Shown in pieces: positions 3,716 to 59,370 of a DNA stretch of 64,000 bases. The DNA is taken from positions 115 through 64,114 of the forward strand of contig JBDTOT010000023.1 in assembly GCA_039933105.1 (NCBI GenBank). The letters run 5' to 3'. How positions within the stretch are numbered: the stretch's first letter is position 1; each line of letters begins with the position of its first letter. A program made the translations under genes and the position numbers. Under the pieces are notes generated by a model. It was not told the DNA's origin and made no database searches. It saw nothing but the letters and a program-made list of their open reading frames with translations. The stretch is from Gammaproteobacteria bacterium (GTDB lineage: Bacteria; Pseudomonadota; Gammaproteobacteria; Steroidobacterales; Rariloculaceae).

Positions 3716-3752
3716 GGGCAAGGCGTAACACGCCGGGCAACAGGAGATAGCG

Positions 3753-5027
3753 ATGTTCATTACCAAGAAGCATCTTTCCCGTAGAACCGTATTGCGCGGA
3801 GCCGGCGCGGTCATCGCGCTGCCGCTGCTCGATGCGATGCTGCCTGCCATGGCCGCGAATTCGAAGCCGACGCCGCAGCGTCTGGCGTTCGTCGGCTTCC
3901 CGCACGGTGCCGTGATGCGGCACTGGTCGCCGGAGCAAACGGGCAAAGACTTCCAGATGACGAAAATTCTGGAGCCGCTCACGCCGTACCGTCAGCACCT
4001 GACGATCGTGTCCGGGCTCCGCAACAAGCCGGCGGAGAATCCCGAGCCGCACCAGTACGTCGAGAAAACCTGGCTCACGTGCGTGCCGTTCGACAAGGCT
4101 GGCGCGAACGGCAAAGACTACGGTGTCTCCGCCGACCAGCTCGCGGCGCGCCACATCGGCCAGGAGACGCGCTTGCCATCGCTCGAGATGACGACGACGC
4201 AGCAAGGCGCGCAGATGTCGTGGCGCACGCCAACGCAGTCGCTGCCGCAAGAGATCAGCCCGCGCGCGGTGTTTTACCGCCTGTTCGGTCAGGGCGACAC
4301 CGACAGCGAGCGCACGGCGATCGTCAAGGAAACCGGCAGCATCTTGGATCGCGTCACTGGCCAGGCGCAGGGTCTGCAGCAGAAGCTGGGCGCCACAGAT
4401 CGCGTGGCCGTCGACGCCTATCTCGACTCCGTGCGTGAGATCGAGCGACGTTTGCAGCTCTCCGCCGAGAAGGACAACAGCGGCCTGGAGATCCCGGAAG
4501 CGCCGATCGGCGTGCCGAACGACATCGACACGCACTTCAAGATGATGTTCGACTTGATGGCGCTCGCGTTTCAGGCGGACGTCACGCGCGTGGTCACGTT
4601 CTCGATGGACCGCGAAGCCAGCATGCGCACGTACAACAACTTGAGCATTAGCGAGGCGTTCCATCCGCTGTCGCACCACTCGAATGATCCGGCGAAGCAG
4701 GATCGGCTCGCGGTGATCCAGAACTACCATACGAAGGTGTTCGCCCGGTTCATCGAGCGCTTGGCGAAGACGCAGGATGGCGACGGCACGCTGCTCGACC
4801 ATTCGATGATCATGTTCGGTAGCAACATGAGCGACAGCAATCGCCACAACCATGATCCGCTGCCTATCGCGATCCTTGGGCGCGCGCACGGCAACATCAA
4901 AGGCGGTCAGCATCTGCGCTACCCGCAGGATTCGCGCTTTGCAGATTTGTTGCTCACCGTTCTTCAGCGCACGCAAATTCCGATCGAATCGATCGGCGAC
5001 AGCGCCGGCGTGATCTCGGAGGTGTAA
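3753..5027 (+). CDS. DUF1552 domain protein (Tat-signal)
   Basis: 424-aa ORF. The N-terminus MFITKKHLSRRTVLRGAGAVIALPLLDAMLP is the characteristic DUF1552 start. It lies immediately downstream of the DUF1592 gene. Confidence 0.8.
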   Translation: MFITKKHLSRRTVLRGAGAVIALPLLDAMLPAMAANSKPTPQRLAFVGFPHGAVMRHWSPEQTGKDFQMTKILEPLTPYRQHLTIVSGLRNKPAENPEPHQYVEKTWLTCVPFDKAGANGKDYGVSADQLAARHIGQETRLPSLEMTTTQQGAQMSWRTPTQSLPQEISPRAVFYRLFGQGDTDSERTAIVKETGSILDRVTGQAQGLQQKLGATDRVAVDAYLDSVREIERRLQLSAEKDNSGLEIPEAPIGVPNDIDTHFKMMFDLMALAFQADVTRVVTFSMDREASMRTYNNLSISEAFHPLSHHSNDPAKQDRLAVIQNYHTKVFARFIERLAKTQDGDGTLLDHSMIMFGSNMSDSNRHNHDPLPIAILGRAHGNIKGGQHLRYPQDSRFADLLLTVLQRTQIPIESIGDSAGVISEV

Positions 5028-25947: not shown

Positions 25948-26017
25948 AGAATCCTGCAACTAGGCAAAACCCAGCACCGTCTTTATGCTGCGCGGTACGC
26001 GTTTCGTGGGGGAGTTC

Positions 26018-26749
26018 ATGCGTAAACCGCCAACGTCAGCCCGTATCCTCGTGGCGCTGCTCGGCCTGTCGCTGGCCGGCGTGGCGGCTGCCACGCGGCC
26101 GGATTTCACCGGCGTGTGGGGCGTGTATCGCGAGCCCGGCGCCGCGGCCCCGCAACGCGGTGCGCCGCAACCGGCGTTACCGCTCAAGCCCGAAGCCAAA
26201 GCGAAGATCGACGCATACCACGCGCTCGTCGACAAGAGCGGTGACACGCCGGGCGGCTTTTGCCTTGGCACCGGCATGCCGGGCTCGATGCTCGGCTCCG
26301 GCGGCTACCCGATGGAGGTCGTTCAGCACGACAAGATGTTCGTCGTCGTGTACGAAGCGCACACCGAAGTGCGGCACATCTACTTAGGCGAGCGCGCGAA
26401 AGAGCAGGATCTGTTCCCCGATCGCAACGGCTATTCGTTCGGCCGTTGGGACGGTGACAGCCTGATCGTCGAAACCACGCATCTGAAGGAGGCCGTCGAT
26501 CAGGCGCGCTATCCGCACAGCGACCAAGCGAAGATCGTCGAGGAGTATCGTCTCGTGACGAACGACGACGGCAGCAAGGTGCTGATCGCCAACATGACAC
26601 TGACCGACCCCACGTTCTACACGCAGCCAATCAAGGCCGAGAAGAAATGGCAGTACCAGCCGGGGATCCGCCTGTTACCGTACGAGTGCACGGAGCCCGC
26701 GTGGGAAGCGCACCTCGAAGAGCTCGCGAACAAACAGGCCGCGCACTAG
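26018..26749 (+). CDS. secreted partner protein L1 of the recurrent S/L module (unknown function)
   Basis: ATG preceded by GGGGGAG, with a signal peptide. Shared motifs: PDFTGVW, P-x3-C-x-G-x-GMP, VRHIY, GYSFGRWDGDSLIVE, YECTE. It is a paralogue of 33092-33952, 48708-49472, 55374-56333 and the C-terminal half of 32022-33077. Confidence 0.75.
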   Translation: MRKPPTSARILVALLGLSLAGVAAATRPDFTGVWGVYREPGAAAPQRGAPQPALPLKPEAKAKIDAYHALVDKSGDTPGGFCLGTGMPGSMLGSGGYPMEVVQHDKMFVVVYEAHTEVRHIYLGERAKEQDLFPDRNGYSFGRWDGDSLIVETTHLKEAVDQARYPHSDQAKIVEEYRLVTNDDGSKVLIANMTLTDPTFYTQPIKAEKKWQYQPGIRLLPYECTEPAWEAHLEELANKQAAH

Positions 26750-26766: not shown

Positions 26767-27123
26767 ATGAACAAACTGTTAGTTGCACTGCTGCTCACGG
26801 CGGCATTGACGCCACCGGCGTTTGCGCACCACTCCGCGGCGCGGTTCGATCTCACGATTCGCGACCACACGGTCGTAGGGATAGTGAAAGAGTTCAAACC
26901 TGCGAATCCGCACACGAAGATCGTGCTCGAGATTGCGGACGAGAAGGGCAAGCGCGACATCGAATTCGAGGGCCACAGTTTGAACAATTACTACCGTGGC
27001 GGTTGGCGCGAAGGATTGGTCAAGCTCGGTGACAAGATCACGCTGTATGCGGCGCCGACGAAAGACGGCACGGATGGCGGGTACGCGCTCGAAGTCGTAG
27101 CCGCCGATGGCACGAGGTTCTGA
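26767..27123 (+). CDS. small secreted HHS-motif protein S1 (DUF6152-like)
   Basis: 118 aa with GGAG 7 nt upstream of the ATG. Signal peptide ...PPAFA|HHSAARFD, then NPH. One of six paralogous S domains in the window. Confidence 0.8.
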   Translation: MNKLLVALLLTAALTPPAFAHHSAARFDLTIRDHTVVGIVKEFKPANPHTKIVLEIADEKGKRDIEFEGHSLNNYYRGGWREGLVKLGDKITLYAAPTKDGTDGGYALEVVAADGTRF

Positions 27124-27494: not shown

Positions 27495-27572
27495 GAGATG
27501 GTGAAGCCGGTGTTGTGACAGATCCCGGTAGTGTCTGATAGCTTCCGTCTGGGGGAACAACAGGGGATCGTG

Positions 27573-28457
27573 ATGAAAGTGCTTGGCCGTCTTGTGAGTT
27601 CAGTGGTCGTCGTGTGGGGCCTGTCATCGTTGACGCCCATGTCAGGGCAGTCGCAGCAGCCGCCGCCGAATACCGGCACGCCGGAAGAAACCGCAAAACT
27701 TGCGGTGGCGGCCGGCAAATACGATATCGCCGGGCTGAAGCTCGGCACGCCGCTCAAGGAGTCGATGCAGGCGCTGAAGGCGCACAATCCCAAGCTGCAA
27801 ATGAAACAGGACACTGTTCGGTACGACGTGCTGGGCGCCGACCTGCTCTACGGCCTGACCTTCACGAGCCCGGAGGAAAGATTCATCTTTAGCCTCACGA
27901 TGCCTCCCAATCCGATCGTCGTATCGAGGCTGGCCCGTGTGCTGATATTCACGAAGGAGACGGCGCCGACACAGCAAGTGATCGTCGATGCCTTGATCGA
28001 GAAGTATGGCACGCCCAGTTACGACAACGGCCCCAACCAACTGAACGACGCCAATTTTCGCGTCATCAACTGGTTGGACGATGCCGACGGCAAGCGGATG
28101 AAAGACCCGACCGGCCAGATGTGCACGACGTCCAACTCGTTTACGGGCATACCGCCGCAATCGGCTGAGGCCGCGCAGATGCCGGTGCGGGGAATATCGA
28201 TGCTCCTCGAGTCGCGTTTTTCCATCGGCCAGGGGGATGTCTGTGAGACGCGTCGGATGGTTCAGGCGAGGCTCCAAAAGTGTTGCAGAGACGGCTTGGC
28301 TGCCCCGAATTTGGTCGGAGGGCTAGTGGTCCACCTGGGCGATGGCCCGCTCGACGAACAATCCATCGGCGCGACGCACGAGATGCTCGTGAACGCGACG
28401 AAGGCCAAGGACGCGAAGGAGCAGGAGAGCGCGCAGAAGAACCGGCCGAAGCTGTAG
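27573..28457 (+). CDS. secreted hypothetical protein
   Basis: ATG at 27573 (track ORF starts at 27531). Signal peptide present, no family recognised. The region looks more A/T-rich than its neighbours by eye. Confidence 0.55.
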   Translation: MKVLGRLVSSVVVVWGLSSLTPMSGQSQQPPPNTGTPEETAKLAVAAGKYDIAGLKLGTPLKESMQALKAHNPKLQMKQDTVRYDVLGADLLYGLTFTSPEERFIFSLTMPPNPIVVSRLARVLIFTKETAPTQQVIVDALIEKYGTPSYDNGPNQLNDANFRVINWLDDADGKRMKDPTGQMCTTSNSFTGIPPQSAEAAQMPVRGISMLLESRFSIGQGDVCETRRMVQARLQKCCRDGLAAPNLVGGLVVHLGDGPLDEQSIGATHEMLVNATKAKDAKEQESAQKNRPKL

Positions 28458-28458
28458 A

Positions 28459-30423
28459 TTGATTTCAATACACCGGGAGGGTCCTTCTTTGAAACGCTGC
28501 TGTGCGCACGCGTGGGTCTTGGCCACGCTCATCATCGCCGTCGGAGTCGTTGCAGTGCACGCGCCGCGCGCGAATGCGCAGGCGAAATCGCCGATGGTCG
28601 AGTGGCCCATCTACGGCGGCAACCTTGCATCGCAGTTCTACTCGCCGCTCGATCAGATCAACGCGCGCAACGTAAAGGACCTGAAGGTCGCGTGGCGTTG
28701 GTACGCAGGCAACTTCGGTCCAGATCCGGAGCTGAAGAGCGAGAACACGCCGCTCATGATCGGTGGCGTGCTGTATGCGACCGCTGGCGCCACACGTAAC
28801 GTTGCGGCGATCGACGCCGCCACGGGCGAGACGCTGTGGGTCTGGCGACCGAACGAGACCGAGCGGTTCAAGCAGGCGCCGCGCAAGATGGCCGGGCGCG
28901 GCGTGGCGTACTGGACCGACGGAACGCAAGACAAGCGCGTGTTCGTCGTGACGCCGGGCTTCTTTTTGTGGTCGCTCGACGCGACGACCGGTCTGCCGAA
29001 GCGCGAGTTCGGCGAAGCCGGAGTCGTCGATCTGCGCCGAGGCCTACGCGGGCCAGCGGACAACGTAGAGGCGGGCTCATCGTCGCCCGCGCTCGTGGTG
29101 GGCGACGTGGTGATCGTGGGGCCGGCCGGCGGCATTGGCGCACGGCCGAACTCGAAGACTCAGGTGAAGCTCGACGTGCGCGGCTTCGACGCGAAGAGCG
29201 GCAAGCTCTTGTGGACGTTCCATACGATTCCGGAGAATGCCGAGTTCGGCTACGACACGTGGCTCACGCCGGGCTCTGCCGAGTACACGGGTAACGCGGG
29301 CGTGTGGGCGCCGATGGCGGCCGATCCCACGCTCGGGCTCGTGTATCTGCCGGTCGAAGGCCCCACCAGTGATTTGTACGGCGGCGAGAGGCCCGGCAAT
29401 AATTTGTTTGGCAACACGCTGGTGGCGCTCGACGCGAAGACCGGCCAGCGTGTGTGGCACCAGCAGCTCGTACATCACGACATCTGGGATTACGACAACC
29501 CCACATCGCCGATCCTGCTCGACGTGAGGGTGGGCGGCAAACAAGTCAAAGCCGTGGTGCAGCTCACGAAGCAAGCGTTCGCGTACGCGTTCGATCGCGC
29601 GACCGGTGCGCCGCTCTGGCCGATCGAAGAGCGGCCTGTGCCGACGTCCGACGTGCCGGGCGAATGGACCTCGCCAACGCAGCCGTTTCCGACGAAGCCG
29701 AAAGCCTACGACCGCCAGGGCGTCAGCGAGGCCGATCTCGTCGACTTCACGCCCGCGATCAAGGCGGCGGCGCTCGCGGCCGTCAAAGACTTGCGCATGG
29801 GCCCGATGTATACGACGTCGTCGCTGATCGACGCGACGGACGGCACGCGCGGCGCGCTCGTGCTTCCGCATTTTGGCGGCGGCACGAACTGGGAGGGCGG
29901 CGCGGCGGATCCCGAGACTGGCATGCTGTACGTCGCGTCGCAGACCACGATGAACGTATTCGCCGTGAACCTTGCGAACGGCCGCTCCGACATTCGCTAC
30001 TTGTTCGTAAACGGCGACGCGCCGCATCCGCTCGGATTGCCGCTGATCAAGCCGCCGTATGGCCGTATCACGGCCATCGACATGAACACCGGCGAGCACC
30101 GGTTCATGATTCCGAACGGCGACACACCGGACGACGTCAAGAACAACCCGGCGCTCAAGGGCGTGAAGCTGCCGCCAACGGGTAAGCCGAGCAAGGCCCT
30201 GCTGCTCGTGACGAAGACGCTGCTGTTCGCGGCCGAAGGCTACGGCGGCGGGCCGATCCTGCGGGCGTACGACAAGGCCACCGGCGCCGTGGTGGCTGAG
30301 CTTGCGTTGCCCGGTGTGGCGAGCGGCAAACCCATGACCTACCTATTGAACGGCAAGCAGTACCTCGTGCTGGCCGTTGGCAAGGACCACCCGGCGGAGC
30401 TCGTGGCGTTCGCATTGCCTTAG
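28459..30423 (+). CDS. PQQ-dependent dehydrogenase (glucose/quinate/shikimate-type beta-propeller)
   Basis: 654 aa with a signal or anchor segment. It has WPIYGGNLASQFYSPLDQINARNVKDLKVAWRW, repeated W-docking motifs and TKQAFAYAFDRATGAPLW. The exact start is uncertain. Confidence 0.85.
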   Translation: MISIHREGPSLKRCCAHAWVLATLIIAVGVVAVHAPRANAQAKSPMVEWPIYGGNLASQFYSPLDQINARNVKDLKVAWRWYAGNFGPDPELKSENTPLMIGGVLYATAGATRNVAAIDAATGETLWVWRPNETERFKQAPRKMAGRGVAYWTDGTQDKRVFVVTPGFFLWSLDATTGLPKREFGEAGVVDLRRGLRGPADNVEAGSSSPALVVGDVVIVGPAGGIGARPNSKTQVKLDVRGFDAKSGKLLWTFHTIPENAEFGYDTWLTPGSAEYTGNAGVWAPMAADPTLGLVYLPVEGPTSDLYGGERPGNNLFGNTLVALDAKTGQRVWHQQLVHHDIWDYDNPTSPILLDVRVGGKQVKAVVQLTKQAFAYAFDRATGAPLWPIEERPVPTSDVPGEWTSPTQPFPTKPKAYDRQGVSEADLVDFTPAIKAAALAAVKDLRMGPMYTTSSLIDATDGTRGALVLPHFGGGTNWEGGAADPETGMLYVASQTTMNVFAVNLANGRSDIRYLFVNGDAPHPLGLPLIKPPYGRITAIDMNTGEHRFMIPNGDTPDDVKNNPALKGVKLPPTGKPSKALLLVTKTLLFAAEGYGGGPILRAYDKATGAVVAELALPGVASGKPMTYLLNGKQYLVLAVGKDHPAELVAFALP

Positions 30424-32021: not shown

Positions 32022-33077
32022 ATGATGAGAATCGAACGGGGGTGGTTGGCGGCAGCGCTGTGCGCGACGGCGCCGACGGTGTACGCGCACCATAGCGTGT
32101 CCGCGTGGTTCGACACCACGAACATGATCGAGGTCGAAGGGCGGGTGACCGAATTCCGCTGGCAGAACCCGCACGTGATCTTCACGTTGAACGTGGTCGA
32201 CGCGGTTGGCGCGACCACGCCGTGGGCCATCGAGACGCTCTCGATCAGCGGCATCAGCCGCTGGGGCATCACGGAGGATCTTTTCAAGGTCGGCGATTGG
32301 CTGCGTGTGGCAGGCAATCCTGCGCGCAAGGACGGTCACAACATCTTCGTGCGCAACATTCTGCTGCCCGGCGGGCGCGAGATCGTGCTCGGCGGCGCGG
32401 CGCGCTGGTCGAACGATACGCTGCGCGGCAGCGAGCTGCTGCAAGCGCGTGACGGCGACCCTTCGCGGCCCGAGCTCGGCATCTACCGCACGTGGAGCAG
32501 CGGCGGTGTCGGCGCCGTGCTGTTTCCGGAGGCCGTGCAGGCGAATTTCGATTTCAACAAGTATCCGTTGACGGCGGCCGGGCGTGCCGCGCTGCAGAAG
32601 TTCGACTTCGCGGCCGACGACCCCACGGCCGACTGCAAGCCGAAAGGCATGCCGACGGTCATGGAGCAGCCATACCCGATGGTGGTGACCGAGCGCGGTG
32701 CGACCATCGAGATCGCGCTCGAGGAGTACGACACGAGGCGCATCGTGCACATGGGCGCCGCTGGTGCGGCCGCCGCGGCGAAGGCGCAGCCGAGCGCGCT
32801 CGGGTACTCGGTCGGTCGCTGGGAAGATGGCACGCTCGTGGTCACGACGACGAAGTCGATCTGGGGGCACTTCGACAGCGTGGGGATTCCGCTCACGACG
32901 GCTGCCGTCATGGTCGAACGCTTCACCCCGAGCGCCGACGGCGCGCGGCTCGACTACATACTAAGCGTTACGGACGCCGCGACATTCACGATGCCGGTCG
33001 AGCTCAAGAAGGCGTGGATCTGGCGACCCGAGGTTACGATCGGCAAGTTCGAGTGCCAGCGCGTCGTGCGGAGGTAA
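32022..33077 (+). CDS. natural fusion of an S domain and an L domain (secreted, unknown function)
   Basis: The N-terminal half has ...TVYA|HHSVSAWFD ... QNPH ... VGDWLRVAGNP (S-type). The C-terminal half has DDPTADCKPKGMP, TRRIVH, GYSVGRWEDGTLVV and FECQR (L-type). There is no second signal peptide. The start could be TTG 32001 or ATG 32022/32025. Confidence 0.75.
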   Translation: MMRIERGWLAAALCATAPTVYAHHSVSAWFDTTNMIEVEGRVTEFRWQNPHVIFTLNVVDAVGATTPWAIETLSISGISRWGITEDLFKVGDWLRVAGNPARKDGHNIFVRNILLPGGREIVLGGAARWSNDTLRGSELLQARDGDPSRPELGIYRTWSSGGVGAVLFPEAVQANFDFNKYPLTAAGRAALQKFDFAADDPTADCKPKGMPTVMEQPYPMVVTERGATIEIALEEYDTRRIVHMGAAGAAAAAKAQPSALGYSVGRWEDGTLVVTTTKSIWGHFDSVGIPLTTAAVMVERFTPSADGARLDYILSVTDAATFTMPVELKKAWIWRPEVTIGKFECQRVVRR

Positions 33078-33091
33078 GCGGAGTGCTGGCG

Positions 33092-33952
33092 ATGGATACG
33101 CGGGTGCGCGGGGCATGGTTTGGATGTGCGATCACCGTGATTGCGGGGATGGCCGCGGTCGCGACAGAGCGAGGCTCGGCTGCGCAGTGGGTCGACTATC
33201 CCACTGCAAATGTGCCGCGCAATGCCGACGGCTCGCCGAACTTGAAGGCGCCTGCGCCGCGCGCCGCCGACGGCAAGCCAGACCTGTCGGGCATGTGGTT
33301 CTCGGCCGAACTACTCCCGGAGTGCGCCGACACCAAGGTTGACTGCATCCCGCAGATGAATCTCCCTGCCGACCAGATCAACATCGGGCGCACGCTGAAG
33401 GATGGATTGCCGTACACGCCTTGGGCCGCGAAGCTGGTGGCGGAGCGCACGGCAAACGGCGCAAAGGACGATCCGCACGCGTTCTGTCTGCCACCGAACT
33501 TCCCGCGCGCGTACTCTCTGCCGCAGTACATCAAGATCGCGCAGATGCCGAAGCTGACGATCGTGTTGCACGAGTTCAACGCGAGCTATCGGCAAATCTT
33601 CACGGACGGGCGGCCGCTGCCGAAGGATCCGTTGCCGGCGTGGAACGGTTACTCGGTCGGGCATTGGGAACGCGACACACTGGTGGTCGAGTCGAGCGGC
33701 TTCCGCGACGATCTGTGGCTCGATCTTTCGGGCAGCCCGATGACGAGCGCTGCGCACGTGGTGGAGCGCATCAAGCGGCCGAGCTTCGGCTCCCTAGAGA
33801 TCGAGGTCACGGTCAACGATCCCAAGGCCTACACGAAGCCGTGGACGGTGACACTGCGCCAGAACATCGTGCTCGACACCGAATTGATCGAGGAGACGTG
33901 CCTCGAGAACGAGCGCGATACGGGGTTGTTCAAGAAAGAGGGCGCCAAGTGA
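33092..33952 (+). CDS. secreted partner protein L3 of the S/L module
   Basis: 286 aa from ATG 33092 (GTG at 33083 also possible). Motifs: PDLSGMW, DDPHAFCLPPNFP, YRQIFTDGRP, GYSVGHWERDTLVVE, ETCLEN. Confidence 0.75.
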   Translation: MDTRVRGAWFGCAITVIAGMAAVATERGSAAQWVDYPTANVPRNADGSPNLKAPAPRAADGKPDLSGMWFSAELLPECADTKVDCIPQMNLPADQINIGRTLKDGLPYTPWAAKLVAERTANGAKDDPHAFCLPPNFPRAYSLPQYIKIAQMPKLTIVLHEFNASYRQIFTDGRPLPKDPLPAWNGYSVGHWERDTLVVESSGFRDDLWLDLSGSPMTSAAHVVERIKRPSFGSLEIEVTVNDPKAYTKPWTVTLRQNIVLDTELIEETCLENERDTGLFKKEGAK

Positions 33953-34332
33953 AGGCAAAGGTGTTGCTGCTGCCACTGTCTCTGCTGCTGGCGCTACCGA
34001 CGAGCGCGCATCACTCCGGCGCCGCGTACGACCGCGACAAGACGGTGACCGTGAACGGCACCGTGAATTCCGTCGAGTGGACGAGTCCCCACGCCTGGAT
34101 CAAGGTCGACGCCAAGAACGAGGCGGGTGCTGCGGTGACGTGGGAGTTCGAGCTGCCGAGTCCCGTGACACTGACGCGCCGCGGGTGGGCGCGCACGGCG
34201 CTCACGCCCGGCGACAAGATCACGGTGACCGGCGCACTGGCGCGGGAGCATCCGAACATCGCCATTGCGACCGGCGTGATCGACAAGAACGGCCGCCGCC
34301 TGTTCGGCGGCGCCGCGGATTCGAAGGAGTAG
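33949..34332 (+). CDS. small secreted HHS-motif protein S3
   Basis: GTG start overlaps the L3 stop (GTGA). Signal peptide ...LALPTSA|HHSGAAYD, then SPH and PGDKITVTG. Confidence 0.8.
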   Translation: MKAKVLLLPLSLLLALPTSAHHSGAAYDRDKTVTVNGTVNSVEWTSPHAWIKVDAKNEAGAAVTWEFELPSPVTLTRRGWARTALTPGDKITVTGALAREHPNIAIATGVIDKNGRRLFGGAADSKE

Positions 34333-36163: not shown

Positions 36164-36655
36164 TCAGCCGCCGCCGGTGCCCAAGTACGGCAGCAACCGG
36201 CCAAACGCCAGCACGCCGAACCAGAACGTCAGCGACAGCACGCCGACCACCTTCGCGAGCGCCGGCGTGGCGTCGTGCGGCCCCAAGCGCAGGAGCTTCG
36301 GCTCGACCGCAAAGAAGTAGAGCAGAAAGTTCAAGCCAGCCGCCACGACCAGAATCATTTTGGCCCAGAACGACCAGTTGCCGGAGTAGTTGTACGGGTC
36401 GCCGAAAAAGAAGCACACGCCGGTAATCAAGTTGATCGAGAAGGCGGCGATCGCCCACGGCATCAGGCTGTGCACGGCCTTCAATGGAATCGTGCGCTGG
36501 AAGCCGATCAAGCGCAGGTCCATCACGAGCAACGCGCCCATCAACACGCATAGGCCGAGGAAGTGCAGCGACTCGAGCGTCGGCCAGCTCCAGGGGTAGC
36601 CCAGGACGAGCTTGTTGAGCCACGTGGTCAGCATCCAGTCATAGATGTGGTGCAT
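36164..36655 (-). CDS. 4-TM membrane protein, tandem paralogue B
   Basis: 163 aa. It shares P-T-x-x-[ST]-LH-x-[IL]-G, [VM]-DLRL-[LI]-G, IN-[LT]-x-[ST]-G and GRL with the upstream gene 36668-37162. Confidence 0.65.
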   Translation of the reverse strand: MHHIYDWMLTTWLNKLVLGYPWSWPTLESLHFLGLCVLMGALLVMDLRLIGFQRTIPLKAVHSLMPWAIAAFSINLITGVCFFFGDPYNYSGNWSFWAKMILVVAAGLNFLLYFFAVEPKLLRLGPHDATPALAKVVGVLSLTFWFGVLAFGRLLPYLGTGGG

Positions 36656-36667
36656 TTGGCTCGTCTC

Positions 36668-37162
36668 CTAAATGAAAATCATGATGTAGGCCGTGAGTCG
36701 ACCTGTCACGATCGCGCAGAGCCAAAAAACGATCCCGATCGCGGCGATGTTGCGAACGCGTGCCGGCGGCTTGCCACCGGGCCACGTGCTTGCCTTGGCA
36801 AGCTCCGGCTGCAGGATGCCGGCGGTCGCGGCGCCGGCGAACACGAGCACGATTTTCGCGATGAACATGAGGTCCGTGGCGAACATCGTAGCCTGCGCCA
36901 CGAACAGCCCCGAGCCCGACAATGTGTTGATGAGGAAGCCGACCCAGGCGACCGGCAGCAGCTTCTGCAGCGACTCGTACGGAATGCCGTCGAATCGGCC
37001 GAGTAGCCGCAGATCCACGATCACGCACAGGCCGACCATGATCGCCATGCCGATGGCGTGGAGCGTGATGACGGTCGGATAGCCTTCGCTCGACATCCGA
37101 ACCCATTCGGCGAGCTTGCTCGCCTCTAACCAAGCAAAGAATGCCACGCGAAGTTCCCCCAA
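36668..37162 (-). CDS. 4-TM membrane protein, tandem paralogue A
   Basis: 164 aa with a TTG start (start uncertain). Paralogous to 36164-36655, with a 12-nt intergenic gap. Confidence 0.65.
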   Translation of the reverse strand: MGELRVAFFAWLEASKLAEWVRMSSEGYPTVITLHAIGMAIMVGLCVIVDLRLLGRFDGIPYESLQKLLPVAWVGFLINTLSGSGLFVAQATMFATDLMFIAKIVLVFAGAATAGILQPELAKASTWPGGKPPARVRNIAAIGIVFWLCAIVTGRLTAYIMIFI

Positions 37163-48252: not shown

Positions 48253-48711
48253 ATGGCCACTGCCCATCGCGCCTCGCGCGTCATCGTCGCCGCGTTTGGT
48301 CTCGTCATCGCGGCAGGCGCGGCCGCTCATCACTCGTACGCCATGTTCGAGCCTGCGCGGACGGCGACCGTCACGGGCACGGTTGCGAAGCTCGAGTGGA
48401 CGAATCCGCACGTGTTCATCTGGATGTACGTGCCGAACGCGGCGCGCGACAACGGGTTCGATTTGTATGCGTTCGAGAATGGGTCGCCGAACGTGCTGCT
48501 GAAGCGGGGATGGTCCAAGGAGACATTCGCGGTCGGCGAGAAACTATCGATCGCCTATTGGCCGCTCGCCGACGGGCGCACGGGTGGGCACTTCGCAGTC
48601 GCCACGCGCGTGGACGGCAGCGTCATTCGCGGCGCGGGCGGGCCCGGTGGCGGTGTCGACGCCTCGGACGCCGTCGGTGCACCCACGGCACCGCCGGCAG
48701 GTAAGCCGTGA
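48253..48711 (+). CDS. small secreted HHS-motif protein S4 (with Gly/Pro-rich tail)
   Basis: ATG preceded by GGGAG. Signal peptide ...AAGAAA|HHSYAMFE, then NPH and VGEKLSIAYWP. It has a low-complexity C-terminal extension. Confidence 0.8.
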   Translation: MATAHRASRVIVAAFGLVIAAGAAAHHSYAMFEPARTATVTGTVAKLEWTNPHVFIWMYVPNAARDNGFDLYAFENGSPNVLLKRGWSKETFAVGEKLSIAYWPLADGRTGGHFAVATRVDGSVIRGAGGPGGGVDASDAVGAPTAPPAGKP

Positions 48712-49472
48712 GCACACGCACGAACCGATGTTGGCGTTGGGGCGGCGCGTTGCTGGGTGCGCTCGTTACCGTCACCGCCTCGGCTCAGCCGGCGAGTAAC
48801 CTGCCGGGCGCTACCTACGCCTCGCTCGCGAAGCTGCCCGACTGGAGCGGATGGTGGGGCTTCGGACAAGCAGGGCAGGACGAGCTGCGAACGCACCCGT
48901 TGCCGCTGCAGCCTGCGGCGCGCGATGCCGCCCGCGCCGCGGGACCCGATGCGGATCCGCTGCGCTACTGTCGGCCGTTGCAGTTCACGGGCTCGAGCGG
49001 AGGCTTCACGGAAGCGGTCGAGTTCTTGTTCACACCGGGCCGCGTGACCGTGACGAACGAGCGCGGCCTGGTTCGGCGCATCTACTCCGATGGCCGGGGG
49101 ATGTCCGCGGAGCCCGATCCGACGAACACCGGCGTGTCGATCGGCCGTTGGGAGGGCGAGATGCTCATCGTCGAAACGCGAGGCATCAATCCGCTCGCGT
49201 CGTATGGCGGTGTGCCGATCGGTAAGAATGTGCGGATCACCGAGCGCATATTCCTCAAGGATCCGGGCACGCTGCAGATCGATGTCGTGACCGAAGCGCC
49301 CGACGTGCTCACGCAGCCCGATCGCCGGACGCGCCTCTACCAGCGCGTCGGGAAAACCATGGCGAACGAGATCACGTGGTGCACCGAGTACGATCGCTCG
49401 ATCGAGCCGGGCTCGGGCAAACAGCGTTTCGACCTGACGCCGCCCGCCGATTTGCCGCCGCCGCCGCGCTAG
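48708..49472 (+). CDS. secreted partner protein L4 of the S/L module
   Basis: GTG start overlaps the S4 stop (GTGA). Motifs: PDWSGWW, DPLRYCRPLQF, VRRIYSDGRG, GVSIGRWEGEMLIVE, TWCTEY. Confidence 0.75.
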   Translation: MSTRTNRCWRWGGALLGALVTVTASAQPASNLPGATYASLAKLPDWSGWWGFGQAGQDELRTHPLPLQPAARDAARAAGPDADPLRYCRPLQFTGSSGGFTEAVEFLFTPGRVTVTNERGLVRRIYSDGRGMSAEPDPTNTGVSIGRWEGEMLIVETRGINPLASYGGVPIGKNVRITERIFLKDPGTLQIDVVTEAPDVLTQPDRRTRLYQRVGKTMANEITWCTEYDRSIEPGSGKQRFDLTPPADLPPPPR

Positions 49473-49480
49473 CTCGAAGA

Positions 49481-51247
49481 TCAGCGCGTCGGCAGCGCGA
49501 ACACGAACAGCTTGTTGCGGCTGTCGTTGGGCGCGACATCCGGCGTCAGCCGCGAGAGCCCGCCCGTCATGTTGGAGCGGCCGGTGCTCACCGCTACGTA
49601 CTGCTTGCCGCCGGCTTCGAACGTGATCGGGTGCCCGGTGACCTGCGAGCCTACATTCGTTTCCCACAGCACCTTGCCCGTCGTCGCGTCGAACGCACGA
49701 AAGTTGCCCGCCACGTCGCCGCCGAATACGAGGTCGCCCGCCGTTGCGACGAGCGCCGTCACGCCCGCGCGCGTGTCGAACCGCCACACGGCCTTGCCGG
49801 TCTCGGCCGAGAGCGCGCGCACCGTGCCGACCTTACCGTCCGCGTCCGGCGTGATCATTGTCTCGCCGCTGATGGCGTAGAGAAGCTCCGGTTTTCGCTC
49901 GGTCGTCGCGGCCGTGGTCACGTTCCAGCAGGTGTTCTGCAACGGCATGTACATGGCCTTCGTGCGCGGGCTGTATGCGCCGGCAGGCCAGTTCTTGCCT
50001 CCGTTCGTCGTCGGGCAGATGAACAGCGTTTGATTCGCCGCGGTGAACAAGGCTTTTTCGTTGACCGTGACCTTGCCGGTGGCGCCGTCGATACCCGCGA
50101 CCACATTCTGGAAGATGGTCGGCCGTGCCCACAGAAATTCGCCCGTGACGCGATCGAGCGTGTAGACGAGGCCGGTCTTGCCGGGTATTCCCGTCACGAC
50201 TTTGCGGTGCTCGCCGGGCTTCAGCCGAGGGTTGATCCACGGCACTTCGCTCTTGTCGGGCGCAACGGCCGTGTCGAGCAGAATTCGCTCGAACGGGTGA
50301 TCGAGATCCCAGTGGTCGACGACGTGCTGGTAGTACCACGCGGTTTCGCCGGTGGCCGGACGCAGCGCGAGCGTCGAGTTGTGGTAGAGGTACTGCTTGT
50401 CATTGCCGGCCAGCAGGAACTTCGGTGCCGGTGCCGTGACCGACGTGCCCATATAGATGAGATCGAGCTCGGGGTCGTAGCTCGGCATCATCCACGCGCC
50501 GACGTGCCAACGGCCCGAATCCGGTATGTCGCCCCAACTGTCGCCGCCGGGCTCGCCAGGTTTCGGGATCGTGCGCTTGCGCCACAGTTCCTTACCGGTG
50601 TGCGCGTCGTGCGCCGTGATCACGCACGCATCGGGCCCGCCCTGCGGCTGGCAATTGCGGCCCGAGATCAGCTTGCCCGCGACGACGAAAGGCGCCGTGC
50701 CCTGTTTCACGTGACTCACGTGATAGTCGAAGACCTTGTTCTCCCACACGAGCTTGCCGGTCGCTGCATCGAGCGCGTAGATCGTGTTGTCGGCGCCGTT
50801 GTCGATGATCAGTCGATCGTAGATCGCGAGGTTGCGATTCGTCTGCGGGAACGGCACGAACTTGCCCAGATCTTCCGGGAGTGCGCGACGGTGTTCCCAG
50901 AGTGTCTTGCCGGTCGCCGCGTCGAGCGCGACGGTGTGGTCCGACGGGTTGGGGAAATACATGACGCCGTCGTGCACGATCGGCGTGCCTTCCTGCGACG
51001 GCGCGTCGTCGAGGTCGATCGACCATGCGACCTTCAAACTACCGACGTTGCTGCGGTTGATCTGGTCGAGTGGGCTGTAGCCCCACGCATCGAATGTGCG
51101 CCGCCACATGAGCCAGTCGGCGTCGTCCGGGTGCCTAAGCATCGCGTCGGTCACGGGGCGGAACTCGTGCTCGGCGGCATTCGCGCCGATAGCGGCGGCG
51201 AAGCAGAGCGAAACAGCGAGTAGGGTGGTGCGGGTTGGCATCGGCAA
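49481..51247 (-). CDS. PQQ-dependent dehydrogenase (methanol/ethanol-family-like quinoprotein)
   Basis: 588 aa with a signal peptide. WLMWRRTFDAWGYSPLDQINRSNVGSLKVAWS and an eight-blade W-motif pattern are present. Confidence 0.85.
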   Translation of the reverse strand: MPMPTRTTLLAVSLCFAAAIGANAAEHEFRPVTDAMLRHPDDADWLMWRRTFDAWGYSPLDQINRSNVGSLKVAWSIDLDDAPSQEGTPIVHDGVMYFPNPSDHTVALDAATGKTLWEHRRALPEDLGKFVPFPQTNRNLAIYDRLIIDNGADNTIYALDAATGKLVWENKVFDYHVSHVKQGTAPFVVAGKLISGRNCQPQGGPDACVITAHDAHTGKELWRKRTIPKPGEPGGDSWGDIPDSGRWHVGAWMMPSYDPELDLIYMGTSVTAPAPKFLLAGNDKQYLYHNSTLALRPATGETAWYYQHVVDHWDLDHPFERILLDTAVAPDKSEVPWINPRLKPGEHRKVVTGIPGKTGLVYTLDRVTGEFLWARPTIFQNVVAGIDGATGKVTVNEKALFTAANQTLFICPTTNGGKNWPAGAYSPRTKAMYMPLQNTCWNVTTAATTERKPELLYAISGETMITPDADGKVGTVRALSAETGKAVWRFDTRAGVTALVATAGDLVFGGDVAGNFRAFDATTGKVLWETNVGSQVTGHPITFEAGGKQYVAVSTGRSNMTGGLSRLTPDVAPNDSRNKLFVFALPTR

Positions 51248-54977: not shown

Positions 54978-55364
54978 TTACTTGATCGCGAAGCCGGCGC
55001 CCGGGTTGAGTTCCTTGCCGTCGCCACGCGTGGCCTTCATCCACGCCGCTGCGGGGCGGCCGTCCTTCATCGGGTGGCCGGTGATCGTGACCTCGGTGCC
55101 CGGAGAGAGATCGCTCTTGCGGATACCGGCACGAGTCAGAGTGCTCGGGCCCTCGGCCTCGAAGCCCCACGTCGTGACGGTGCCATCCGTGTTCTTGACG
55201 TCGACGAGCAACCACGAGTGCGGGTTCGTGTACTGAAACTCTTTCACGGTGCCCTTGACGGTGACCTCTTTGGCGTCATCGAACATGACGGCCGAGTGGT
55301 GCGCAAAGCTGGGCGCTGCTACGAGTGCGAGCCCGCCAAATGCGATTGCCAGAATCTGTTTCAT
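54978..55364 (-). CDS. small secreted HHS-motif protein S5
   Basis: 128 aa. Signal peptide ...VAAPSFA|HHSAVMFD, then NPH and PGTEVTITGHP. Its AGGAG ribosome-binding site overlaps the TAG stop of L5. Confidence 0.8.
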   Translation of the reverse strand: MKQILAIAFGGLALVAAPSFAHHSAVMFDDAKEVTVKGTVKEFQYTNPHSWLLVDVKNTDGTVTTWGFEAEGPSTLTRAGIRKSDLSPGTEVTITGHPMKDGRPAAAWMKATRGDGKELNPGAGFAIK

Positions 55365-55373
55365 CGTCGTCTC

Positions 55374-56333
55374 CTACTTGTCGCCTTTCTTCGTGAAATT
55401 GAAGTTCGTGAAATCAGAACTGCCGGTATCGGTCTTGGTGACCGTATTGTTTTGGTTTTCCCCACAGTCCCAGTAACGGATACGCAGACTCTTGTCGTCG
55501 TTCGACAGGCGCTTGTAGGTCTGTTGAGTGTACCAAGGTTCCGCAAGAGCCGGCGGGTCGAAGGCCCAGATGTCGACGGCCATCGTATCGGCATCCGCCT
55601 TTTGCCAGATTTCGACGGTCTCGACCTGCTCTGTGTAGTACGGCTGAATGCGCTGGTATTGACCGGCCCGCATCTGCGCGGTGTGGATCACGAGCTTGTT
55701 GCCGTCCCAGAAGCCGATCGAGTCGCCTTCCCAGAGCGGATAGGCGTCTTCTGCACTCGGGTGATCGCGGCCATCTGTGTAGACGCGACGCATCTCATTC
55801 TGCATCTCGTTGACGAGATACGTTTCCTGCGGAGTCACGACCCATTCGCGCAAAAACGGCTCGACCATCCATCGCGGCATGCCGGCAGGCTCGCAGTTGC
55901 TCAGCGGATCGAACTCGATGCCCCGGTTGATCTTGTCGAGCTTGTCCATGAGGCGTTTGCTGAATTCGGGCGTCAGCTTTGCTGTCGGCAATGCCGTGGG
56001 AGACCCTTGATCCGGATCCCAGAAGAACGGGCTCGCTTCGCGCGTCCAGACACCCGTCCAATCGGGAACCGTCTCCCATAACAGCGCTTTGCCGCCCTGA
56101 GCTTGTTGCTTCAAGTGGTCGTACAGCGCCCGAGCCGTCTTGTATTCAATGCCAAGATTCGTCAGGCGCTGCTTTTCGGCGGCGCGCGCTGCGGGTATGG
56201 AGGGCGCCGCGGCCGCCGTACCCGTGGCGGCGGGGGGCTGCGGTGCAGGTTGTTGTTGACAGGCGGTCGCAGCGATTGTCGCGATCGCGACGCACAGCAT
56301 CCGGCAGCCAGCAGTGCTGATAGTGCTCATCAT
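55374..56333 (-). CDS. partner protein L5 of the S/L module, probable lipoprotein
   Basis: 319 aa with a lipobox-like IAATAC followed by a Q/P/A-rich linker. Motifs: PDWTGVW, DPLSNCEPAGMP, MRRVYTDGRD, GDSIGFWDGNKLVI, WDCGEN. Confidence 0.75.
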   Translation of the reverse strand: MMSTISTAGCRMLCVAIATIAATACQQQPAPQPPAATGTAAAAPSIPAARAAEKQRLTNLGIEYKTARALYDHLKQQAQGGKALLWETVPDWTGVWTREASPFFWDPDQGSPTALPTAKLTPEFSKRLMDKLDKINRGIEFDPLSNCEPAGMPRWMVEPFLREWVVTPQETYLVNEMQNEMRRVYTDGRDHPSAEDAYPLWEGDSIGFWDGNKLVIHTAQMRAGQYQRIQPYYTEQVETVEIWQKADADTMAVDIWAFDPPALAEPWYTQQTYKRLSNDDKSLRIRYWDCGENQNNTVTKTDTGSSDFTNFNFTKKGDK

Positions 56334-56898: not shown

Positions 56899-57315
56899 CT
56901 ACTTGCCGCCCGAGGCTTGGTTCCTGCGCGCCAGCACGTCGCGTAGCAACGGCAGGTCGTTCAAGGCGGGCGCGTCGACCGGGATCGTGTTCAGATACGC
57001 CCAGATGTCCGCTAGCGTTTGCGCCGATGCGTCCGGCATCGCGGGCATGTTGGGCAACGGTGAGTTCTGCACGAACGTGATGAAGCCCTCGAGCGGATAC
57101 TTCATCGGCACTAAACGGCGCTCGCCGGTCTGCGCGTCGAAGCCGTGGCAGGCGTAACAGTTGTAGGTATCCGAGAACAGCTGTTTGCCGCGTTCGGCAT
57201 TGCCAACCGGCGCGCTGCCGGCGCTTTGCTGCGCCGGCGACGGCGTGACGACGACGAATAGACCGAGCGCGATCGATGGAAGCAGTGAGGCATGTGCCAG
57301 CTTACGCAGTTTCAT
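56899..57315 (-). CDS. secreted mono-haem c-type cytochrome
   Basis: 138 aa with a signal peptide. It has a CYACH haem motif and a distal NMPAMP Met region. It lies 14 nt downstream of the TPP enzyme gene. Confidence 0.8.
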   Translation of the reverse strand: MKLRKLAHASLLPSIALGLFVVVTPSPAQQSAGSAPVGNAERGKQLFSDTYNCYACHGFDAQTGERRLVPMKYPLEGFITFVQNSPLPNMPAMPDASAQTLADIWAYLNTIPVDAPALNDLPLLRDVLARRNQASGGK

Positions 57316-57329
57316 AACCGAAATACCGC

Positions 57330-59252
57330 CTATCGGGGTTGTGAGACGACGTCGAGCAGTGCGGGCTCGCCCGCGCGAACACGCGCGAGCGCACGCTCGA
57401 GAGCCGGTGCCAACGCGTTCGGATCGCTGATCGGGCCTTCGGCGTACACGCCGTAGCCCTGTGCGATCTTGGCGTAATCTGGCGCCGGTTCGCGAATCAC
57501 GTTGCCGATATCCACTTTGTCGTTGCCGCGACCGCGCCGTGCTGCCGTGCGCTGCACGAGCATGACTTCCGCGTGATATGCGCGGTTATTGTGGATGATC
57601 AGGAGCAGCGGGATCTTGTGGTGCGCCGCCGTCCACAGTGCGCCGGCGCCGACGAAGTTGAAGTCGCCGTCGCCGACGATGCCGATGGATAGTCGGCCAT
57701 GCGCTTTGTGCGCCAGCGCGCCGCCGACCGAGGCCGGTGTGTCGTAGCCGATGCCGAAGCCACCGGAGTCGCCGTTGTAGCGATAGTGCTTGTCGTGATT
57801 CAGCAGCCGGCGTTGCCATTGGCCCGTGAACTGATGGCCCGAGACGATCGCCCAGTCGTCGTTCTGAATCTGGCGGCCGAGCTCGGTGATCATGCGCGGC
57901 ACGCTGATCGGGCTCGCGTTCCAGCCGTAACGTGCGTCGTCGATCTCACGCTCGTGCACCGCTTTGTGCGCAGCCGCGACCTGGGTACGGCGCGCCGTGC
58001 GTGCGCGCGCCGCGTCGCGCGGGCTCTGGCGGCGAATCTCTTCGATCAACGAGGGTAGCGTCGCTTCAGCGTCCGCGGCGATCGCGAGGTCGACGTCGGT
58101 GTAGCTGCCGTAGTCGTGGATGTTGTGGCCCTGCGACAGGTACTCGGCGCAGATGCTGATCGTCTTACCGCCAGTCGCGTGTGTCTGGCGCACCGATGGC
58201 ACCATGTCGTTCAGCTCGAGGCCCAAGATCACGTCCGGTTTGTAGTCGGCGCCGCCTGAGCCGTACAGCGCGTGCCACGACGGGAAGTCCTGCCACGAGC
58301 CGTACGTGCCGACGTCCACTGGCGATTGCAGCAGCTCGGCGAGTTCGAGCAACAGGTCCCAGCCGGCCGGCGTGCGTCCGAGCTTGCCTGGCCGAATCAG
58401 CGGCCGCTCGGCACTGGCGAGCCACTTGGCCGCCTCGCGAACGGCGCCGGTCTCCCCTTGCGGGACCGCAGGCAGGATCACCTTCGGGATCGGCAAGCTC
58501 ATGCCGTTTGGGATTGCGGCTTCTTGGAGCTCCGAGTCGACGACCAGCAAGGTCGGGCCCATCGGCGGCGTGCGGCCGATCGTGTACGCGCGCATCGCGA
58601 TCCCTGCGAATACGTCGAGCCGCGTGGGCTCGTCGTCCATCTTCATGAAGTCGCGCACGATCGAGCCCATGTCTTGTGCGCTATGCGGGCGATTGATGAC
58701 CGACGTGGGATTCCGCGGTTGTCCGACAACGGCGAACACCGGCACGCGGTCGCACCACGCGTGGAACAGCCCCATCGACGCGTGCAGCAGACCGACGGTG
58801 CCGTGCATCAACGTCATCATCGGTTTGCCGGCCGCTTTCGCGTAACTATGTGCGATGGCCGCGCCGGCTTCCTCATGCAGTACGGTAAGAATCTCGGGCT
58901 TGCGGTTGCCGCCGTGGTTAATGAGCGATTCGTGTATGCCCTCGAACGCCGAGCCGGGGTTCACCGCTACGTAATCGAAATCGAGTGCCTTCAGCACGTC
59001 GACCATGTGATCGGAGCCGGGGTGCTCGATGAAGGCTGCGCCGACACGTGGCTCCGGCGGAACAAAATCCTTCCGGGCGTCGGCGTCCGTCGGTCGCGCG
59101 ACCGCGGGGCGTGCGGTGGGTGGCGCTTGCTGCGCGTCGCTGGCGTTGCCGACCAACACGCTTGCGGCACCTGCGGCGCCGCCGGCAGCGCCCTTCAAGA
59201 ATCTTCTTCGATCGACGGACGGTGTCGCGTCGCTGTCGCTGCGTTTGCCCAC
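57330..59252 (-). CDS. thiamine-pyrophosphate enzyme (acetolactate-synthase fold) with twin-arginine signal
   Basis: GTG at 59252 is preceded by GGGGA (the track ATG is at 59306). DRRRFLKGAAGGAAGAASV matches the RRxFLK Tat consensus. The TPP_N domain and the GDGDF ... NN pyrophosphate motif are present. Confidence 0.85.
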   Translation of the reverse strand: MGKRSDSDATPSVDRRRFLKGAAGGAAGAASVLVGNASDAQQAPPTARPAVARPTDADARKDFVPPEPRVGAAFIEHPGSDHMVDVLKALDFDYVAVNPGSAFEGIHESLINHGGNRKPEILTVLHEEAGAAIAHSYAKAAGKPMMTLMHGTVGLLHASMGLFHAWCDRVPVFAVVGQPRNPTSVINRPHSAQDMGSIVRDFMKMDDEPTRLDVFAGIAMRAYTIGRTPPMGPTLLVVDSELQEAAIPNGMSLPIPKVILPAVPQGETGAVREAAKWLASAERPLIRPGKLGRTPAGWDLLLELAELLQSPVDVGTYGSWQDFPSWHALYGSGGADYKPDVILGLELNDMVPSVRQTHATGGKTISICAEYLSQGHNIHDYGSYTDVDLAIAADAEATLPSLIEEIRRQSPRDAARARTARRTQVAAAHKAVHEREIDDARYGWNASPISVPRMITELGRQIQNDDWAIVSGHQFTGQWQRRLLNHDKHYRYNGDSGGFGIGYDTPASVGGALAHKAHGRLSIGIVGDGDFNFVGAGALWTAAHHKIPLLLIIHNNRAYHAEVMLVQRTAARRGRGNDKVDIGNVIREPAPDYAKIAQGYGVYAEGPISDPNALAPALERALARVRAGEPALLDVVSQPR

Positions 59253-59370
59253 GGTTATCCCCCTATGCGATCCGGGCTCCGCAGTGCAAAAGGTGCGGCG
59301 GAGCAATCGCGGGGATCATACCCCAATCGTTTCGGTGGGAAAGGACGGTGCCGTTCCGCGCGTGCGGCGG

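Follow-up and report, generated by a model that had tools for sequence, protein, structure and literature searches.

A 64,000-nucleotide stretch of a metagenome-assembled genome (MAG) from the gammaproteobacterial family Rariloculaceae (GenBank assembly GCA_039933105.1, contig JBDTOT010000023.1, positions 115 to 64,114 of the forward strand; hereafter the window) carries a gene that joins in one polypeptide two protein families also encoded in the window by separate genes: an N-terminal S domain (DUF6152) and a C-terminal L domain of an unnamed family. Judged from its sequence conservation, this fused open reading frame (ORF) is genuine and under selection and is not an artefact, because its full length is conserved in independent assemblies and species genomes. 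Since its halves are homologous to stand-alone S and L proteins and the junction is not artefactual, the Rosetta-stone inference is legitimate; it supports the reading that S and L work together in one compartment, and we infer that they act as one physical complex. The overall picture that we favour, and consider somewhat probable, is a periplasmic S–L unit with a candidate N-terminal-histidine metal site on S and a candidate ligand pocket in L. The association of S with L is the more secure part of this picture, the identities of metal and ligand being much less so.

The fusion gene and its parts are located in the window as follows:

32022..33077, plus strand: fusion gene, comprising signal peptide, S domain, connector and L domain; 351 aa from the ATG at 32022
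32022..32087, plus strand: Sec signal peptide, aa 1-22, predicted cleavage V-Y-A↓H
32088..32387, plus strand: S domain, aa 23-122, DUF6152 with a predicted oligonucleotide/oligosaccharide-binding (OB) fold
32088..32096, plus strand: His23-His24-Ser25, predicted mature N-terminus and candidate metal ligands, invariant in 36 fusion homologues and 6 S paralogues of the window
32166..32174, plus strand: Asn49-Pro50-His51, holding the third conserved His in a predicted β1-β2 turn, identified by conservation
32388..32465, plus strand: conserved connector, aa 123-148, GGAARWSNDTLRGSELLQARDGDPS
32466..33065, plus strand: L domain, aa 149-348, unnamed family, predicted antiparallel β-barrel weakly resembling FABP/CRABP
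32634..32636, plus strand: Cys205, first of the conserved L cysteine pair, identified by conservation
33054..33056, plus strand: Cys345, second of the conserved L cysteine pair, identified by conservation

The ORF (32001/32022..33077, plus strand) is uninterrupted by any stop codon or frameshift, and its GC content by codon position is that of a normal gene (0.87 at third positions, GC3). In the same MAG, NCBI places the start at 32025 and calls the product a 350-aa ‘DUF6152 family protein’ (P0001, 100% identical). All the motifs quoted by the initial annotation, which had been made from the DNA sequence alone, are present at their assigned places: for S, TVYA↓HHSVSAWFD at aa 19-31, RVTEFRWQNPH at 41-51 and VGDWLRVAGNPARKDG at 90-105; for L, DDPTADCKPKGMP at aa 199-211, TRRIVH at 238-243, GYSVGRWEDGTLVV at 261-274 and FECQR at 343-347. 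That annotation had also described the fusion as lacking an internal signal peptide, and a Kyte-Doolittle scan bears this out, the highest 15-aa mean past the signal peptide being 1.47 and falling in predicted β-strands. It had assigned the first ~150 residues to S, but S ends near aa 122 and residues 123-148 form the connector.

Homology searches agreed with the proposal that the two halves correspond to S and L. The S half matched Pfam PF19649 (DUF6152) over aa 14-103 with 66.6 bits, against a gathering cut-off of 27 (E 2.1e-18). The L half was recognized by tblastn against the stand-alone genes L1 (25985-26749, E 3e-15) and L2 (33092-33952, E 4e-11), by a hidden Markov model (HMM) of 118 stand-alone L proteins (aa 189-328, E 1.4e-21) and by an iterated L profile (aa 140-348, E 1.6e-80), so that tblastn and profiles alike contradict the notion of a C-terminal half unrelated to L. 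The L portion begins at about aa 140-149, and a full mature L domain is present. No Pfam or NCBIfam model matched the L half, and no relative was found among PDB sequences with the L, fusion or S profiles; a PDB match to 3-dehydroquinase at E 5e-4 was rejected as a chance motif match. A literature search for DUF6152 or PF19649 returned no paper.

The stand-alone S and L genes of the window are:

25985..26749, plus strand: L1, found by tblastn
26767..27123, plus strand: S1, 17 nt after L1
33092..33952, plus strand: L2, 286 aa, starting 14 nt past the fusion stop; P0121 is 100% identical (‘hypothetical protein ABI640_12130’)
33949..34332, plus strand: S2, 127 aa, with a GTG start overlapping the L2 TGA stop (GTGA); Pfam DUF6152, E 1.5e-29
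48253..48711, plus strand: S3, found by homology
48708..49472, plus strand: L3, with a GTG start overlapping the S3 TGA stop (GTGA); order S then L
55374..56330, minus strand: L4, with a possible lipoprotein signal, found by homology
54978..55364, minus strand: S4, 9 nt after L4
56488..56865, plus strand: S5, an orphan with no adjoining L on the same strand

The window itself contains the arrangement from which the initial annotation had argued, namely S and L genes that are adjacent and tightly coupled, with GTGA overlaps in L2/S2 and S3/L3 and gaps of 17 nt in L1/S1 and 9 nt in L4/S4. Three of the four unfused pairs run L then S, in contrast to the S-then-L order of the fusion.

The same fusion was found well beyond the source genome. 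A word-indexed protein search returned 502 matches, and the best 120 of these, almost all 340-360 aa long and from many independent assemblies, were 55-100% identical to the query over more than 90% of its length. When a single genome per species was scanned, 164 genomes proved to encode a full-length relative (39-88% identity), some with at least two copies; the best 80 of these genomes are all MAGs. The carriers include Woeseiaceae, Rariloculaceae and Pseudohongiellaceae (Gammaproteobacteria), Rhodospirillales, Terriglobia/Acidobacteriota and Dehalococcoidia. An exhaustive HMMER search of 1.84 billion representatives of 50%-identity clusters with the fusion profile yielded 15,398 clusters at E<=1e-3, of which 512 also reached E<=1e-30. 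The best 150 clusters were nearly all 330-375 aa long and aligned to profile positions 8-348 in one collinear match. Across 36 aligned homologues, conservation is as strong in the connector as in the domains that it joins: R128, E138 and G145 are invariant, and W129, R135, L140, D146 and S148 nearly so.

These data bear directly on whether the fusion arose in the source MAG through a mistake of sequencing or assembly, or through a recent frameshift that joined two neighbouring genes. The metagenomic origin of the source and the occurrence of true artefacts among the relatives, such as a frameshifted gene at locus L002 and the proteins P0078 and P0244, speak for such an origin; against it stand a collinear full-length protein in more than 120 clusters, in 164 species genomes and in 512 clusters at 50% identity, the conserved connector and the normal codon-position GC (GC3 0.87). 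We regard this explanation as vanishingly improbable, and the assembly-created fusion that the initial annotation had wished to exclude is excluded by the recurrence of the full-length architecture in independent assemblies together with the strong conservation of the connector.

Three candidates encountered in these searches were set aside. P0244 (346 aa, with a PF19649 match) had the appearance of an L-S fusion but consists of L and only the C-terminal half of S, lacks the signal peptide, the His-His (HH) pair and the Asn-Pro-His (NPH) motif, and occurs on a single contig. P0078 (558 aa) was rejected as a read-through frameshift product. An apparent fission at L002 (S of 220-256 aa, then L of 157-172 aa) proved to be a frameshifted copy of a 433-aa fused gene, with flanks 94% and 78% identical to locus L023 and out-of-frame, Arg-rich text between them. 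This fused gene seen as two ORFs (L002 8674-9959, minus strand, from a Microflora Danica MAG) represents either an assembly indel error or a pseudogene, and calls for caution when ‘unfused’ pairs are counted in such assemblies.

We classified ORFs with the S and L profiles in 84 loci plus the window, corresponding to 81 non-redundant sources. This gave 111 fused S-then-L ORFs, 0 fused L-then-S ORFs, 40 S-only and 45 L-only ORFs, with 3-5 fusion paralogues per locus in several loci. Unfused S and L genes formed 26 adjacent same-strand pairs, 17 of them L then S and 9 S then L, and no intact L-S fusion was present among the best 120 matches to a concatenated L2+S2 query. Fused and stand-alone domains were each other's best matches almost without exception, and the two forms fell into separate groups in both domain trees. 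Neighbour-joining trees with Fitch parsimony required 4 changes between fused and unfused states for S and 3 for L, the S root state being ambiguous. Because so few changes are needed, the fused form is, on these trees, a large, old, much-duplicated and separately evolving subfamily that was gained or lost only a few times. The fusion has a bearing on the S and L families in general, not on particular paralogue pairs of the window.

The trees leave room for the fused form to be ancestral, with the separate genes arising by fission, or for the domains to be co-inherited through a shared pathway without contact. The separation of fused and unfused forms in both trees, the ambiguous S root and a polarity that cannot be read from this sample are all compatible with either course. 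The stand-alone families, however, are far larger (15,398 profile-matching clusters against ~512 at full length, with at least 7,817 L-type matches). Direct association is favoured by the close translational coupling seen in either gene order and by a connector that is both ordered and conserved. We therefore consider fission or contact-free co-inheritance unlikely, and retain the reading that S and L associate.

The fusion has paralogues with an arrangement of their own. At L001 (6287-8433), a long L-type gene (about 375-394 aa) lies upstream of, and overlaps by 4 nt, a second S-L fusion paralogue (339 aa), and similar ‘L plus [S-L]’ operons occur at L009, L011 and L017. The window lacks this pair, and in it a major facilitator superfamily (MFS) gene comes directly after the PQQ (pyrroloquinoline quinone) dehydrogenase.

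The S domain combines a small set of conserved residues with a characteristic N-terminus. His-His occurs at a frequency of 0.99 among fused S domains and of 1.00 among stand-alone ones; HH[S/A/G] is found in 145/151 S-bearing ORFs, the 6 exceptions being truncated. In all 144 scorable S-bearing ORFs, a sequence rule for predicted cleavage places HH immediately after a canonical signal-peptidase I site, with A, G or S at -1 (144/144), a small or aliphatic residue at -3 (142/144) and a hydrophobic core (140/144). A second motif, [NS]PH, lies 24-27 residues past HH in 143 of the 145 S-bearing ORFs with HH; Pro50 and His51 reach 1.00 in both forms, and Asn49 reaches 1.00 in fused and 0.89 in stand-alone S. 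Comparison of 106 fused and 35 stand-alone domains revealed nine residues conserved in both groups (H23, H24, G40, N49-P50-H51, G63, G91 and G118), of which only H23, H24, N49 and H51 are polar; no Met or Trp belongs to this common set.

We modeled the fusion with AlphaFold2 as a single chain from a 36-sequence alignment. The model has a mean predicted local distance difference test (pLDDT) score of 78.8 and a predicted template-modelling (pTM) score of 0.76, with pLDDT values of 80-94 for the S domain and 73-84 for the connector; the parts of low confidence are aa 13-24, at the end of the signal peptide and the mature N-terminus, and a loop at aa 160-173. The model is consistent with fixed domain packing and an ordered connector. 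Foldseek comparison with the PDB matched the modeled S domain to the OB folds of PriB, SSB/Rim1 and the LysRS N-terminal domain, with probability 1.0 and target-normalised template-modelling (TM) scores of 0.5-0.71; the scores were 0.63 for PriB (4gs3) and 0.71 for the Rim1 SSB (6cqk; root-mean-square deviation [rmsd] 3.3 Å, 85 columns). According to this structure comparison, the predicted S domain is an OB fold, a five-stranded closed barrel.

For L, the C-terminal half of the fusion model matched CRABP II weakly, and the separately modeled stand-alone L2 (pLDDT 85.6) retrieved CRABP II, FABP5, CRBP1 and streptavidin with E values of 1.5e-3 and worse and rmsd values of 4-10 Å. The predicted L domain is an antiparallel barrel that bears a weak likeness to the calycins. 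C205 and C345 are kept in 95-100% of L domains when fused and in 88-98% when stand-alone, suggesting a disulfide formed after export to the periplasm. Residues conserved in both forms also include the invariant Arg R240, S263, E299 and D318, a pattern that fits a disulfide-stapled barrel with a polar pocket.

From these elements we propose the following mechanism. S and L would function in the periplasm as a 1:1 unit, and the fusion would be a permanent form of the heterodimer made by separate pairs. Cleavage by signal peptidase would leave the OB-fold S domain with His-His at its mature N-terminus, and these residues, with the His of the N-P-H motif, may build a histidine-brace-like transition-metal site, most likely for Cu(II) or Ni(II). 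The defining element of a histidine brace is a His as residue 1 after signal-peptide cleavage. If such a site needs a free N-terminus, S must come first in any fusion, which matches the exclusive S-then-L order. That order is suggestive: the 111:0 count represents only about 3-4 independent events on the neighbour-joining trees and is statistically weak, and we down-weighted it as a statistic. The L barrel, stapled by its Cys pair and furnished with the invariant Arg and the conserved Glu, Asp and Ser, would provide a pocket for a small ligand or substrate. The periplasmic S–L unit, which is often encoded beside PQQ dehydrogenases or TonB-dependent receptors, would thereby serve to capture a metal, or a small molecule with metal bound, or to process it.

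We examined the genes within 5 kb of the fusion at 80 loci. Its commonest neighbours are other S/L genes (32/80) and PQQ-dependent dehydrogenases (18/80), and neighbourhood clustering revealed no consistent partner beyond S/L genes, PQQ dehydrogenases, pairs of DUF6644 genes and TonB receptors. In the window, each of the two PQQ dehydrogenases (28459-30423, plus strand; 49481-51247, minus strand) has an S/L pair less than 1.4 kb away. A lanthanide link suggested by the ‘WDYD’ motif of the first of these was dropped; the D-x-D context seen in WDYD is also found in non-lanthanide glucose dehydrogenases. A TonB-dependent receptor is the immediate neighbour in about 7 loci. In the cultured Novosphingobium humi, a megaplasmid carries an S gene (125 aa) and then an L gene (286 aa), with an adjoining, divergent TonB-dependent receptor, and a second plasmid of this organism has, in order, a GH39-like gene, L, S and a gene for a TetR regulator. 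The order fusion, L, S, HbpS-like, BKACE, MAPEG is shared by close relatives of the window but not by more distant ones.

Several observations weigh against a metal-binding S–L unit of this kind. The neighbourhoods are heterogeneous, with every neighbour other than S/L genes and PQQ dehydrogenases in at most 11 of the 80 loci, and no metal-related gene is a consistent neighbour among them. NCBIfam typing of the adjacent TonB receptors gave no assignment at curated cut-offs and one sub-threshold best match, to ZnuD. Confidence in the model is lowest at the N-terminus, where the metal would bind (aa 13-24, with pLDDT below 50). We found no precedent for an OB fold with an N-terminal-histidine site, and no paper that joins ‘histidine brace’ with ‘OB-fold’. 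Finally, structural matches to L are weak (E~1e-3; TM 0.5-0.6 when target-normalised and 0.25-0.32 when query-normalised), so that ‘ligand-binding barrel’ describes a resemblance of the model only.

Alternatively, S and L may cooperate with the histidines forming no metal site. S would then be an OB-fold cap or carrier, its N-terminal peptide plugging or gating the barrel of L, and the unit would carry a small molecule, hydrophobic or anionic, across the periplasm; a substrate or product of PQQ dehydrogenases and the cargo of a TonB-dependent receptor are examples. The weak likeness of L to lipid- and retinoid-binding barrels, its invariant Arg as in FABPs, the recurrence of PQQ dehydrogenases and TonB receptors as neighbours, and the N. 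humi L-S pair that adjoins β-oxidation genes and a TetR regulator are in keeping with such a role. It leaves unexplained, however, why three histidines, one pair of them exactly at the cleavage site, are the sole invariant polar residues of S, and the heterogeneity of the neighbourhoods counts against it too. We consider this alternative to the metal-site reading rather unlikely.

Carried further, the metal-site reading would make S/L a widespread, undescribed class of periplasmic metalloproteins in which a histidine-brace-like Cu/Ni centre on an OB fold faces a FABP-like pocket. Such a class might serve as an oxidative enzyme or in the high-affinity capture of a small hydrophobic or anionic molecule or a metallophore, working with TonB uptake and periplasmic quinoprotein dehydrogenases in soil and marine bacteria. 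We regard this extension as speculative and, taken as a whole, improbable.

Among the other genes near S/L, tandem pairs of DUF6644 membrane proteins were observed ~0.4-7 kb from S/L genes in 12/81 sources, including genomes unrelated to the window:

36164-37162, minus strand, in the window; L002 1-905; L023 3-900; L047; L048; L070; L081; L086 4367-5342: DUF6644 pairs

A DUF6644 pair also lies near S/L in an N. humi plasmid, and one copy in the window has a sub-threshold DUF2214 match. These pairs may be a membrane partner of the S/L system.

Further loci of the window were recorded. A 658-aa thiamine-pyrophosphate enzyme (57330-59306, minus strand) has a twin-arginine-type N-terminus, RRRFLKGAAGG, and is followed directly downstream by a small c-type cytochrome (56899-57315, minus strand) near S5 and L4/S4; an exported thiamine-pyrophosphate enzyme would be unusual. 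A Planctomycete-type pair (1292-5027, plus strand) comprises a gene with a cytochrome-c motif and PSD/PSCyt domains (DUF1587, 1592, 1595, 1588 and 1585), followed by a DUF1552 gene (HXXSHH). Between DUF2237 and the PQQ dehydrogenase lies a 308-aa protein (27531-28457, plus strand) that has a hydrophobic segment at its N-terminus and matched no Pfam model.

At 50% identity, S (DUF6152) and L make up more than 15,000 clusters between them. Gammaproteobacteria, Acidobacteriota and Sphingomonads from soil and sea that have not been cultured carry expanded sets of these genes, with many copies per genome, yet neither family has a paper or a solved structure, and L also lacks a family model. The fusion provides the first firm functional link between the two families and fixes a 1:1 stoichiometry and a domain order. 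Should the metal site prove true, it would bring both a new fold and a two-component architecture to the N-terminal-histidine metalloproteins; the His-His N-terminus makes this a concrete and cheaply testable hypothesis. Database annotation should record the second domain of the fusion, and L merits a family model.

The known kinds of protein closest to the fusion are DUF6152, N-terminal-histidine metalloproteins and calycin-like barrels, and it is not categorically new. According to its Pfam description, DUF6152 consists of single-domain proteins of about 106-141 aa. The N-terminal domain of the fusion is a clear member and shares the HH[SAG] N-terminus and NPH with stand-alone copies; unlike them, the fusion has 351 aa and a second complete domain at aa 140-348, which its NCBI name hides.

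A conserved His exposed by signal-peptide cleavage marks a metal site, as shown experimentally for DUF4198 and other families in a study that used this feature to discover new bacterial metalloproteins and did not cover DUF6152; DUF4198 is Ni-binding and is encoded beside TonB receptors (PMC12537917). Like these proteins (the LPMO, CopC and YcnI braces, and DUF4198, DUF6702 and the ‘anglerases’ of PMC12537917), S has a His at predicted mature position 1 and a further invariant His, and, as with DUF4198, some S/L copies adjoin TonB-dependent receptors. S differs from them in its predicted OB fold, where theirs is a β-sandwich, in its His-His doublet and in its dedicated partner domain.

CusF is a periplasmic OB-fold Cu(I)/Ag(I) chaperone whose ligands, His36, Met47 and Met49 with a Trp44 cap, lie in the barrel. 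S is likewise a small, predicted periplasmic OB-fold protein with a putative role in metal handling; unlike CusF, it has no conserved Met or Trp, its candidate ligands are at the N-terminus and the β1-β2 turn, and the two show no sequence match. Among the calycin-type barrels (FABP, CRABP, lipocalin and streptavidin), CRABP II, FABP5 and CRBP1 are the best, though weak, PDB fold matches of L, which has an invariant Arg as fatty-acid binders do; L is distinguished by its length of about 200 aa, its long N-terminal extension and its probable conserved disulfide, and no sequence relation was found. AdcA of streptococci is a natural fusion of ZnuA-like and ZinT-like parts in which one partner is a calycin-like barrel in metal handling. 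As an analogy for the Rosetta-stone logic only, and without homology, the S–L fusion parallels AdcA in joining extracytoplasmic partners that are separate in some bacteria and fused in others.

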